A DNA stretch of 64,000 nt from an uncultured Actinomycetota bacterium (GTDB taxonomy: Bacteria; Actinomycetota; Thermoleophilia; RBG-16-64-13), in contig CAWBOK010000001.1 in assembly GCA_963790415.1 (NCBI GenBank), positions 770,545 to 834,544 of the forward strand. The letters are read 5' to 3'. The position numbers and the translations under genes were made by a program. The notes under the pieces were generated by a model. That model ran no database searches. It saw nothing but the letters and a program-made list of their open reading frames with translations, and was not told the DNA's origin. Shown piece after piece: positions 2,986 to 53,808 of this stretch (the stretch's first letter is position 1; each line of letters begins with the position of its first letter).

Positions 2986-3418
2986 TCCACCCCGGGACGT
3001 GACTCCCCGTCGGGTCGTGATGTGTCCAGTGCATGAGACCGCCCTGTGCGTTCCACTCGTACGCGCCCTTGAACGAGACGGTGTCGCCAACCCGCAGGGC
3101 ACTCACCCGTGGAGCAATGTCGATATTGTGCGTCACCAAGAGAGTCTGCCCTGAGTCCAGCCGGACGATGAACCGTTGATGCCTCGCACCATCAGTGTCG
3201 TCGGTCACTAGCTGCGTCACCGTTCCTTGCCCCTCGAGTTCCAGATTGCCGGCTCGATCGGCAAAGGCACGCGCAAAACTGGAGTCACCGCCGCTGACGG
3301 GCCTGGCTCCGCTGTCGGCACCTGTTTCGGTCGGGATGGCGGTCGCCGAACAGCCGCACTGCGTGACACCAACCAGACAAGCAACGACGACTGCGAGTGC
3401 GAGCAACAGCCTCTTCAT
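2957..3418 (-). CDS. DUF3465-like secreted lipoprotein
   Basis: 153 aa with lipobox-like signal MKRLLLALAVVVACLVGVTQCGC. Core HQRFIVRLDSGQTLLVTHNIDIAPRV...GDTVSFKGAYEWN. Confidence 0.7.
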   Translation of the reverse strand: MKRLLLALAVVVACLVGVTQCGCSATAIPTETGADSGARPVSGGDSSFARAFADRAGNLELEGQGTVTQLVTDDTDGARHQRFIVRLDSGQTLLVTHNIDIAPRVSALRVGDTVSFKGAYEWNAQGGLMHWTHHDPTGSHVPGWIRHDGRTYQ

Positions 3419-4680
3419 TCCGGATCCTCAACCATCGTGTCTTCTCCCGACCGCCCGAAAGTGGTCCGACATCAGTGCGGCACCCCGAACGTACCACGAG
3501 GTCGCCGCCTTCATCTCTGGTGTTTGTGTTGGGTCTGGCCGCAGTGGCCGACGCAGCCAGCCCGCCGATGGCCAAGTGGGTCGATCCGCTGCCGGTTCCA
3601 CCAGTGGCAACGAAGACGTTCAACAAGTTGATCTCAGGGTGGGCCGACTACTACGAGATCAACATGACGTCCAGCCGGCATCAGTTCAACTCCGACCTGG
3701 GCCCGGCCACAGTCTGGACGTACGGCCAGCCCGGGAAGTCGCCCGTCCTGCTTGGCCCCACGATCATTGCGAAAACGGGCCGGCCGGTGGTGGTCAAATA
3801 CATCAACAACCTTCCGACGGACCCGAGTCTCTTCCCGCTGAAGGCCTCGATCGACTCGACACTGATGGGGTGGGACGTGCCCTCGGGCGCAGCGATCCCG
3901 CACCTCCACGGAGGACACACCGCGGCGCGATTCGATGGGACTCCCGGGCAATGGTGGACAGCCGATGGGGTCAAAGGCCCCGACTATGTAACCAACACCT
4001 TCACGTACGTCAACGACCAGCCGGCTTCGCTGCTCTGGTACCACGACCACACGATGGGGGCCACCCGGTTCAAGCCCTACCTCGGACTGGCCGCGGCCTA
4101 CTTGATCTTCGACAAGGTCGACAACGGCACCACGATCAACGGCCAGCAGGTCCCGTCCGGCTACGGCAAGTACCACCTGCCGCTGGTGATCCAGGAGAAG
4201 CAGTTCAACGCCGACGGCACCTTGTTCTACCCCACAGAAGGCATCAGCTCCGTTCACCCGATATGGGTTCCTGAGTTCTTCGGCGACACTCCGGTCATCA
4301 ACGGCAAGGCCTATCCGTTCCTGGATGCCCAGCCTAGGAGATACCGCCTTCGCCTCCTGAACGGCTCGCAGGCCCGCTTCTACAACCTGCGGTTCAAGTC
4401 GGCCGAGAGTGACCTCCCCTTCTGGATCATTGGATCTGAACAAGGACTCCTCCCCGCCCCGGTGCCCGCCTCGGGATGTCGTGCTGAAGGAGACCATGGT
4501 TCCGGGCTTCGACCCTTCGGAGGAGGTGCCGAGCGAGGTGCTTCTCAACGGCTACCACTTCATGGACCCGACGACGGACGTCATCAAGGCCGGCACCACA
4601 GAGACCTGGCAGTGGATCAACCTCACGGTGGACGCCCACCCGATGCACCCGCACCTGGTGGCCTCCCAGGTGGTTGATGC
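3397..4680 (+). pseudogene. multicopper oxidase (CotA/bilirubin-oxidase type), frameshifted and 3' truncated
   Basis: HLHGGH and WYHDH copper motifs are in the frame of ORF 3397. The continuation LLNGYHF...TWQWINLTVDAHPMHPHLV is in the +1 frame (ORF 4409); the shift is near 4450-4480. The C-terminal HCH copper motif is absent. Confidence 0.7.
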
Positions 4681-4738
4681 GGCCGTTTGTGATCGTGAAA
4701 TAGAGCGAACGCCTCGGCGAACGTCACGGACATGTCTT

Positions 4739-4775
4739 GGGGGTGGGTCGACGCCGACCCACCCCCATCCTTTTC
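4739..4775 (+). terminator. rho-independent terminator
   Basis: Perfect 12-bp stem GGGGGTGGGTCG/CGACCCACCCCC with a 4-nt loop, followed by the T-rich tract atccttttc. Confidence 0.7.
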
Positions 4776-4900
4776 AGACCGCTATCGTTGGCCTTCTCCG
4801 CGGGTTGGCCTTTGCGGCGCTTCCGTTCTCACATCCCATTCCCCACTTAGAACTCAGGAGCTGTGACCGGAAACGGGCACACCCGCACCGCAGAGCCGCG

Positions 4901-5611
4901 TCAAGACAACCCGACCAGCTGCGCTTCGAGGTCGCGCACACGTCGCCCCATGACAACGGTGATCTCGCGCATCAGGTGGTAGCCGAGAACGGGATCGGCT
5001 TCGCACAGGGACTCGAGCTCCACCTTCCCCAGCACCGCCACCTCGCTGTCCACCATGGCGTGACCGGTTGCCGTGTAGTGGAAGGGAGGTACCGCGCCGG
5101 ACCAGGCAAACAGTTCACCCGGACGGACCGTATCGACCAGCACATGGCGACCGGACCCTGCTTCGACCAGGAGACCCACCCGCCCGGAGAGCAAGACACA
5201 GAGACCGAAGGCCTCGTCGCCCTCCCTCATGACAAGGTCGCACGCCCGGTACCGCCGGATCTCCGCGTGCTTGACCAATGCCGCTCGATCAGCCTCGAGA
5301 AGGTAGCGCAAGCCACCCGTACCGAGAAGGTTCCCCTCATCCGGGGGCTCTGCAGCCGGCGTTGCCGAGGGTGGCGTCGCGATGGCGGGCGTCGCGGTAG
5401 GCTGCGTCGAAGGGGGCGCGGGAACAGGAGGCGACGGGCCCGGGCCAACCGCACGCGCCGCCAACGCGCCGGCGGCTGTGGTTCCCGGCACAGAGCCAGA
5501 CACCGCCTGACCTGCGAGTGACGCCCGGGAGGCGCGGCGCGAAGAGAGCGCCCAGTAGATGAATAGCACGGCGAATATGGGGAATACGACGGCCATCGTG
5601 ATCACCTCCAC
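4901..5611 (-). CDS. membrane-anchored cyclic-nucleotide-binding domain protein
   Basis: 236 aa. N-terminal TM (VVFPIFAVLFIYWAL), Ala/Pro linker, and a cNMP-binding fold (YRACDLVMREGDEAFGLCVLLSGRVGLLV...RPGELFAWS). Confidence 0.7.
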   Translation of the reverse strand: MEVITMAVVFPIFAVLFIYWALSSRRASRASLAGQAVSGSVPGTTAAGALAARAVGPGPSPPVPAPPSTQPTATPAIATPPSATPAAEPPDEGNLLGTGGLRYLLEADRAALVKHAEIRRYRACDLVMREGDEAFGLCVLLSGRVGLLVEAGSGRHVLVDTVRPGELFAWSGAVPPFHYTATGHAMVDSEVAVLGKVELESLCEADPVLGYHLMREITVVMGRRVRDLEAQLVGLS

Positions 5612-5766
5612 GTCTGCGTGGAATCACACGGCCGAGCGTTGCGCCCGTACTATCGAGGAGCCAGGGGCGCGCTCGACATAGCCGCCAGTGTCGGTGCCAA
5701 GACCACGGTCGAGATGGGCACCCCGACCACCTACGGGTTTCCTGTCACCGTTGCGCCGGCACTTAT

Positions 5767-52181: not shown

Positions 52182-52226
52182 CGCTGCGCCTAGACACGGT
52201 TGGTCCGCACAAGGGCGTTGAAGGGC

Positions 52227-52250
52227 GGGGCGTCTCGCAGGAGGCGCCCC
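52227..52250. terminator. terminator hairpin between convergent genes
   Basis: GGGGCGTCTC-gcag-GAGGCGCCCC (10 bp with one G.T pair). Confidence 0.55.
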
Positions 52251-52274
52251 GTCTACGTCATGCCTCAGGCGGGA

Positions 52275-53035
52275 TCACTGCGCCGTCCAGCCCCCATCCA
52301 CCAGCAAACTGGCTCCCGTGACCAGCGATGAGGCCGGCGAGGCAAGAAACAGCACGGCGGCGGCCACCTCGTTCACCTGACCGATCCGCCCCAACGGGAT
52401 ACGACTGACCGCCTGCCGGTAGAACTCCTGGTCGGCGAAGTAGGGGCGGGTAAGAGACGTCTCGATGAACGTCGGGCAGACGGAGTTCACGCGGATCCCG
52501 AGGGGAGCCAGTTCCAGCGCGACCGCTTTAGTGAGACCCTCCACTCCGTGCTTGGTGAGCGCAATACACGCTGCGCCCGGGAAAACCCACGTGGCCGAAG
52601 TCAGAGGAGATGTTGACCACGCAACCGCCTCCCCCGGCCGCCATCACCCGCGCCGCCGCCTGAGTGACCCTGAACGTCCCCATGAGGTTGAGGTCGATCA
52701 GCGCCTGCAGATGCTCCTCGCTCACGTCGAGGAACGGCTCCGGCAGATTACCCCCCGCGCTGTTGACCAAGATGTCGATCCGGGGCAGACCACCGACTGC
52801 CTCTCGTACCTGTGCCGGATCCGTCACGTCGCAGGCGCGGAACGTGGCCCCGGCGATCGGACGCGGCGGCCTCCTCCAGCCCGGGACCGGCCCGTGCCAC
52901 GAGCACCACCTCCGCCCCCGCCTCGGCAAGCGCCTGGGCACAGCCGAAGCCGATACCGCGGCTACCCCCGGTGACCACGGCGACCTTTCCGTCGACGCGA
53001 TACGAAGACAGGATGGACTCTTGTTCAGGTGTCAC
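52275..53035 (-). pseudogene. short-chain dehydrogenase/reductase (SDR), two frame disruptions
   Basis: GKVAVVTGGSRGIGFG... / IAGATFRACDVTDP...ILVNSAGG...VVNISS...SVYCA / TKHGVEGLTKAVALELAPLGIRVNSVCP lie in successive +1 frames (shifts near 52860 and 52559). Confidence 0.75.
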
Positions 53036-53096
53036 GGACGTTCCTCCTCATCCCGGCGCTTCGCGTTAGTCTATCCGCAACCGCCCGCGACGGTGA

Positions 53097-53808
53097 CTAC
53101 CCGCGCAACTCCACATACAGCCGCTTGTTCTGTTTCCCCTTGTTCTCGAAACGGAGGATCCGGCATTCTCCGAGTTCGCGCGTGTTTCGGACGTGCGTGC
53201 CGCCGCAGGCTTGGGCGTCGAATCCTCCAATGCGGACCACCCTGACGGCGCCGCCGACGACCGGCGGCGCGACGGTGGCCGTGCGGATCAATTCGGGGCG
53301 TTCGCGGAACTCGGCCTCGGTGACGACATAGGCATCCACGGGAAGATCGCGGCCGATCACCTCGTTGATACGCGCCTCGATGGCATCGACCTGCTCGCGC
53401 CCGAACCCCGGCAGGGCAAAGTCTATGCGCGATTGCTCCTCGCCGATCTGAACGCCGGTGATCAAGCCGGAGTAGTCGTTCAGGACCACGGCGTTGACGA
53501 TGTGCAGGAGCGTGTGGTGACGCATGAAGACATACCGACGGGCCCAGTCGAGGCAGCCTGATCGCAGTGGCGCCCACCGCGACATCGGCGCCGCACAGAT
53601 GCCAGACCGACCCCTGTTCGTCCTGCATGACCTCGGTGACGCGGTATGGTTGTCCAAGGACCTCGAGGATGCCCGTGTCGCACGGTTGACCGCCGCCCCC
53701 GGGGTAGAAGACGGTCTCCGACAACGCCAGCCGGCCGCTGTCCACGGCGGTGACCCGAGCCACGCGCTCGGACCGATAGGGGTGATCGAGATAGAGTCTC
53801 TGCGTCAT
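53097..53808 (-). pseudogene. alanyl-tRNA editing protein (AlaX / tRNA_SAD type), one frame disruption
   Basis: MTQRLYLDHPY...TVFYPGGGGQPCDTG in one frame. LDWARRYVFMRHHTLLH...ACGGTHVRNT (HxxxH and CxxxH zinc motifs) in the +1 frame. Shift near 53570. Confidence 0.7.

Follow-up and report, generated by a model that had tools for sequence, protein, structure and literature searches.

The window analysed here is a stretch of 64,000 nucleotides (nt; C1:770545-834544) from the genome of an uncultured Actinomycetota bacterium (GenBank assembly GCA_963790415.1), which is deposited as 10 contigs comprising 3.64 Mb at 66% G+C. Its minus strand carries a benzoyl-CoA reductase-type (bam) gene cluster in which five genes are broken out of frame, and further split genes lie elsewhere in the window. 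The origin of these frame breaks is the subject of this analysis. The cluster and the single-base events located in it are as follows.

19234-30003, minus strand: complete class II benzoyl-CoA reductase-type cluster, bamB-C-D-E-F-G-H and then a further subunit gene
28054-30003, minus strand: bamB-like tungsten aldehyde:ferredoxin-oxidoreductase-type subunit; insertions at 29739-29740, 28309-28311 and 28151
26279-28026, minus strand: bamC (27466-28026) and bamD (26279-27427), both intact, with full-length alignments to 8 orthologs each
23113-26223, minus strand: bamE-like HdrA-type subunit of about 1030 amino acids (aa); insertions at 25560-25567, 24430 and 23560-23565
22300-23009, minus strand: bamF-like subunit, 236 aa; insertions at 22630 and 22387-22389, where relatives omit 1 base (22631 and 22392)
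21791-22267, minus strand: bamG-like (NuoE-type) subunit; insertions at 22203, 22094 and 21831
19850-21787, minus strand: bamH-like (NuoF-type) subunit; 7 insertions, 1 compensating deletion and 1 stop-removing deletion
21753, 21410-21412, 21324, 21288-21290, 21249-21251, 21220-21222 and 20107-20108, minus strand: the bamH insertions
20067-20076 (about 20070), minus strand: compensating 1-nt deletion in bamH
19851-19853, minus strand: 1-nt deletion in bamH (AAA to AA), which abolishes the TGA stop codon overlapping the ATG of the next gene

The order B-C-D-E-F-G-H followed by a further subunit gene is like that of the class II (ATP-independent) bamBCDEFGHI clusters of obligate anaerobes. The cluster is syntenic with those of two genomes of the same family (G005 and G007) at a DNA identity of 77%, and its genes resemble those of metagenome-assembled genomes (MAGs) of Acidobacteriota, Desulfobacterales and Syntrophus; at the protein level they are 60-82% identical to the bam loci of Desulfobacterales, Syntrophus, Acidobacteriota and further MAGs. 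Unlike known bam clusters, five of the genes cannot be read as deposited without frame correction, and the cluster is known here from sequence alone.

In a first pass, a codon model was trained on the long open reading frames (ORFs) of the genome itself and a seven-state Viterbi path was drawn across the window, which revealed many direct frame switches on the same strand. Individual genes were aligned to orthologous proteins with our own protein-to-DNA dynamic-programming aligner (checked on one synthetic case), in which a skipped base denotes an extra base in the window and a two-base codon denotes a missing one. For each gene, up to 8 orthologs were taken from genomes of the same family or genus and from 80 loci that encode relatives of BamD. 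Syntenic DNA for comparison came from G005 and G007, a same-genus genome was used for nucleotide alignments, and contigs of relatives at about 90% identity were drawn from public short-read runs.

All 8 bamB orthologs (64-82% identity) demand three skipped bases and no missing base, and a short-read contig of at least 98% identity omits one base at 29737. No reference requires a frameshift in bamD. For bamC, three references place single events (28151, 28036 and 28016), all of them upstream of the coding region or right at its 5' end, and two of these references are stop-to-stop ORFs reaching into the end of bamB. BLAST frames of bamE against its G005 and G007 orthologs run in the order -2, -3, -1, -2; a fourth candidate event near 26173-26194 was seen only with stop-to-stop ORF references and was not counted. 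In bamH, 7 insertions and 1 deletion are found with all 8 orthologs (77-80% identity), while at the end of the gene relatives have an extra base at 19850 (G007 reads ...AGCAAAGAGTCATGA). The relatives at about 90% identity omit exactly one base at 22094 and 22205 in bamG, at 22392 and 22631 in bamF, and at 23564 and 24429 in bamE; at 22092-22095 the base is omitted by most of the crossing contigs (X1, 10.6 of 10.6; X2, 94.5 of 94.5-146.8). Once corrected, the frames of the bam genes are free of stop codons and are as similar to their orthologs (72-82% identity) as the unbroken bamC and bamD are.

Across the window, frameshift-aware alignment yields 25 one-base insertions against 2 one-base deletions (binomial p = 5.6e-6). 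The first-pass annotation of this DNA had reported that nearly all frame disruptions share the same polarity, the sole exception being the closing half of a compensated pair in bamH. The one-sidedness holds, with a second exception in the AAA to AA deletion at the bamH stop codon, and the many -1 events that would have spoken against it did not appear when the frameshift-aware protein alignment suggested there was run on the genes of the window. Its counts per gene were nearly all reproduced (bamB 3, bamE 3, bamF 2, bamG 3, kinase 2, GT39 2, SDR 2, AlaX 1); for bamH, where six steps had been counted, alignment gives seven insertions, and the compensated pair was recovered with its deletion about 35 nt past the last insertion. 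The clustering of events is real: 22 of the 27 fall inside an 11.2-kb part of the 64-kb window (p = 7e-13).

The bias extends to the whole genome. The same Viterbi approach finds 559 insertion-type and 100 deletion-type switches when the old frame is required to stay open for more than 60 nt, and 778 and 184, respectively, with looser limits. Control loci gave insertion and deletion counts of 0 and 0 (G005, 66 kb), 4 and 3 (G007, 100 kb) and 0 and 1 (other high-GC DNA, 96 kb), so that the DNA of relatives (262 kb) carries about 1.5 switches of each class per 100 kb; the excess in this genome is about tenfold and is limited to the insertion class. Switches are also strongly patchy. In 5-kb bins the variance-to-mean ratio is 3.6; 404 of 723 bins (56%) have no event at all, and the hot ones have 10-17. 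The hottest patches fall on argC-argJ-argB, rpsO-pnp, folK-nadA-nadB, livH-livM, an SNF2 helicase, a GlcD-type oxidase and HdrA-like genes, the placement of argCJB, nadAB and rpsO in hot spots being based on the Viterbi path only. Because the hot spots span unrelated functions and the assembly is patchy throughout, the bam cluster is one hot patch among dozens and no gene-specific target. This largely answers the reservation, raised with the original observation, that a technical origin does not by itself explain a concentration in particular genes. As a separate observation, HdrA-like paralogs of about 70% identity on contig C3 (485 kb and 1041 kb) likewise lie inside error hot spots.

The gene for polynucleotide phosphorylase (pnp) provides a test case. 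In four relatives it forms one uninterrupted frame of 724-760 codons, but in this genome it is fragmented, and comparison with the same-genus ortholog shows 11 inserted and 2 deleted bases over 2.3 kb (10-11 skipped and 1-2 added bases in the aligner). After correction, the gene is 95% identical in protein and 92.9% identical in DNA to that ortholog. Eleven natural frameshifts cannot have built up in a gene so evidently constrained as pnp. Furthermore, short-read contigs of at least 97% identity from three runs contradict the assembly at 5 of the 5 pnp indel sites that they cover, every covering contig being intact. Together with the bamB site at 29737, all 6 covered sites are intact in short-read contigs and no contig supports the assembly version.

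The sequence context of the events offers little that is specific. Only 2-3 of the 18 bam sites touch a run of at least three identical bases, close to the 13% expected from the composition of the window, and in nucleotide alignments with the same-genus genome (87-93% identity) the inserted base equals a neighbouring base in only 2 of 13 exactly placed insertions; of the four deletions that could be placed, by contrast, two shorten a homopolymer. The proposal that each junction reflects a short homopolymer grown one base too long is not supported, given the rarity of insertions that repeat a neighbour and the lack of run enrichment at the bam sites. A classical Nanopore or HiFi homopolymer-length error was likewise considered and does not fit, with insertions and deletions at 25:2 in the window and 11:2 in pnp and with no enrichment of runs. 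The 18 bam contexts are all different (for example TCTGCCG, AGACGAC, ATCGATG, CCTATGA and CTCGGGC). Near 36 sites, no k-mer survives correction for multiple testing; a methylation-type motif was rejected on the same ground, GATC, TCGA and ATCG being raised about twofold and none of them surviving correction for 136 four-mers.

Outside the bam cluster, single-base events were located in four genes, and two further loci are damaged in another manner.

30214-32135, minus strand: Ser/Thr protein kinase (N-terminal zinc ribbon, transmembrane helix, extracellular domain); two insertions, near 31007 and near 30880
46799-48912, minus strand: GT39-like membrane glycosyltransferase; insertions at 48147-48162 and 47954-47975
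52278-53047, minus strand: short-chain dehydrogenase (SDR); insertions at 52860 and 52558
53106-53814, minus strand: AlaX-like trans-editing protein; one insertion at about 53550-53562
3490-4771, plus strand: multicopper oxidase (MCO) remnant; frame shifts by +1 between 4482 and 4532, about 95 ortholog residues missing, C-terminus lost
5827-6127, minus strand: Fur-family N-terminus (positions 1-46 of the hidden Markov model, HMM), then a 35-aa catalase fragment (Catalase HMM 266-293)

The same-genus ortholog of the kinase (L117, 618 aa) aligns by way of a short middle frame that retains the conserved PPPG(W/Y)I..PPR..A.R motif, and an apparent event at 31974 was discarded as an alignment artefact in a low-complexity linker. 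A paralogous Ser/Thr kinase at another place on the same contig (C1:55010-55832) is also split, between residues 166 and 167, with one base between the two frames (55342 and 55344), a break of the insertion type. For the GT39-like gene, five of six reference loci give the identical two skipped bases, two of the loci being the same G008 ORF. The corrected SDR is 91% identical in protein to its same-genus ortholog, and nucleotide alignment places an inserted C and an inserted T. The fragments of the AlaX-like gene join as ...AIRL|DWARRY..., the N-terminal piece corresponding to tRNA-synt_2c positions 472-532 and the C-terminal piece to tRNA_SAD, and alignment with an AlaRS editing domain (31% identity) requires one skipped base. 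The same-genus genome G001 lacks a counterpart of this AlaX-like gene (about 800 nt, 53057-53874): at C285:1611-1755, a mere 144 nt or so separate the flanking SDR from the downstream gene. These close relatives thus differ in whether the gene is present.

High-scoring pairs of the MCO lie in frame 1 for aa 57-372 and in frame 2 for aa 468-543, with a weak Cu-oxidase_2 match. Counting this junction as a 1-nt step, as had been done, is not tenable given the roughly 95 residues missing there, and the scar is a larger one. The supposed step in the Fur-like gene joins a Fur N-terminus to a catalase fragment; this junction is a rearrangement or deletion scar and no simple frameshift. In contrast to the 1-nt events in the rest of the window, the block 3490-6127 as a whole appears to have undergone genuine degradation or rearrangement. 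An event assigned to a zinc-ribbon protein could not be located, and the Zn-ribbon/PASTA ORF at 9033-10418 runs in one frame. Several apparent switches turned out to be ordinary gene boundaries: those of the DUF2089 operon (6335-7436), glyoxalase/DUF998 (10548-11257), xpaC-like/telA (14402-16713), FMN reductase, RpiB and DUF1989 (42038-43666), and those at 50736-51385 and at 53826/54160. The window also holds an interspersed repeat of about 147 nt, of which an inverted pair (39826-39936 and 40426-40536) flanks 489 nt within a non-coding stretch of 770 nt; BLASTN of 39800-39990 against the genome gives 111 repeat hits at 78-93% identity, and the same-family genomes carry copies too. A scan of the window for tRNAs and Rfam families found none.

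Taken together, the frame breaks are very probably consensus errors of the assembly, mostly single spurious extra bases that fall in patches, and the bamB, bamE, bamF, bamG, bamH, kinase, GT39, SDR and AlaX genes of the organism itself are most likely intact. Insertion-biased consensus error, one of the two origins that the first-pass annotation had put forward, is strongly supported by the genome-wide bias, by the damage to pnp, by the intact form at 6 of 6 short-read sites and by the absence of decay in the corrected frames. With 10 contigs in 3.64 Mb, the genome looks like a long-read assembly, and Mb-sized contigs with an estimated completeness of only 89% hint at a metagenome assembled from long reads in which marker genes are broken. 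The breaks resemble indel errors of long-read genomes and metagenomes in that 1-base indels split conserved genes genome-wide and lower completeness (PMC12007338), and in that the indels are absent from the short-read data of close relatives. They differ from typical Nanopore errors (PMC12007338), as insertions here outnumber deletions by about 5-12:1, homopolymers are avoided and the distribution is strongly patchy. At the other long-read MAG loci that the bam search brought up, frameshifts are few and of either sign, with no shared platform signature, and by that comparison this assembly is unusually poor. Two Acidobacteriota long-read-style MAGs (L062 and L087) have one-base insertions in or near bamD (a match of 1150 against 1149 nt) and three other loci (L030, L038 and L064) have deletion-type breaks; elsewhere frameshifted bam genes are rare and of both signs.

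How the errors arose may be considered at several levels. The preferred reading is that consensus quality was poor in particular stretches, for which a low number of supporting reads could be one cause and the merging of reads from closely related, co-occurring strains another, with alternative alleles written side by side. Alternatively, polishing may have failed in the affected stretches. Allele merging would fit inserted bases that usually differ from their neighbours. Sediment metagenomes hold the nearest public sequences to the window, and the sediment runs in which this lineage occurs contain many strains at 90-99% identity to the region. It is known that collapsed alleles yield apparent frameshifts and that the small frame-breaking indels of such a mosaic consensus vanish once haplotypes are resolved (PMC8445201), although the link to the hot patches seen here is only proposed and error density, in a simple comparison, had no clear relation to the recruitment of reads from relatives. 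Residual errors are also known to persist after short-read polishing where short-read alignment is unreliable (PMC8812927).

A more specific version of consensus error, namely a hybrid or gap-filled assembly, or a long-read assembly on which short-read polishing took effect only where reads mapped well, is a reasonable candidate to which we assign somewhat less than an even chance; in both cases, raw long-read consensus errors would survive in stretches left unpolished. Error-free stretches of at least 10 kb alternate with patches of 0.2-1% indels, and both the polishing residues left where short reads align unreliably (PMC8812927) and the frameshifts of collapsed alleles (PMC8445201), along with the many strains present in the sediment runs, speak in its favour. 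However, the share of near-identical short-read words is no higher in the clean segment 40001-50000 (0.13-0.15) than in the bam block (0.20-0.21), and no link was found between the patches and any measurable sequence property.

Several observations weigh against consensus error in general. The most common long-read pipelines do not usually give an insertion-dominated, homopolymer-avoiding error profile, and in Nanopore assemblies deletions normally outnumber insertions and fall mostly in homopolymers (PMC12007338). The short-read contigs come from other or unknown samples and, strictly, establish intact genes for the nearest natural populations and not for the DNA that was sequenced; a search of public runs for the source reads returned only short-read sediment runs with 5-21% of the words. 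Finally, rpoB (3.9 kb) is free of errors, which fits a patchy distribution but also shows that the errors are not uniform.

The principal biological alternative is a real and recent pseudogenisation, in which an insertion-biased mutator or relaxed selection is removing the bam pathway along with many other genes. We consider this very unlikely. The MCO with its lost C-terminus and the Fur/catalase fusion do look like true decay or rearrangement, and the clustering in the 11-kb block is significant. But with roughly 600-800 breaks across the genome, much of the gene set would be non-functional, pnp, argCJB and nadAB among it, and five adjacent genes would have taken 18 independent insertions while remaining otherwise undamaged. 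Corrected frames are free of stops, truncations and raised divergence, the polarity is one-sided (p = 6e-6), and short-read contigs that are nearly identical to the assembly are intact at each of the 6 covered sites. Equally improbable in our view is that the extra bases are real in the sequenced DNA through some patchy, insertion-generating process acting over stretches of a few kb, such as error-prone repair synthesis, or a dying subpopulation whose DNA forms a damaged or relic pool. Programmed recoding, by +1 ribosomal frameshifting or quadruplet decoding that makes the genes functional as written, would account for the +1 direction and for the full-length products obtained when one base is skipped per site, but is hardly credible when there is no common shift site, four-base codon or enriched k-mer, when the extra base is absent from all orthologs and about 90%-identity relatives compared, and when up to 7 sites occur in one gene, 11 in pnp, and deletions as well.

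The frame breaks are no biological feature, and their value is mainly that of a quality warning for this assembly. Apparent pseudogenes are detected and corrected by IDEEL-type length tests, Kastor and frameshift-aware DIAMOND/MEGAN-LR. The insertion-dominated, homopolymer-avoiding and patchy profile points to a specific failure of consensus or polishing, and if strain merging produced it, the pattern would offer a specific quality-control diagnostic for MAGs. Should the insertions be real after all, they would be a natural case of clustered, insertion-only mutagenesis. For the organism itself, split genes, compensated frameshift pairs and lost stop codons in this genome are best read as likely assembly errors. 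With several hundred spurious insertions, gene calls, pseudogene counts, completeness and metabolic inference would all be wrong unless frames are corrected, and the seeming inactivation of the benzoyl-CoA reductase pathway would be an example of a false inference from this assembly.

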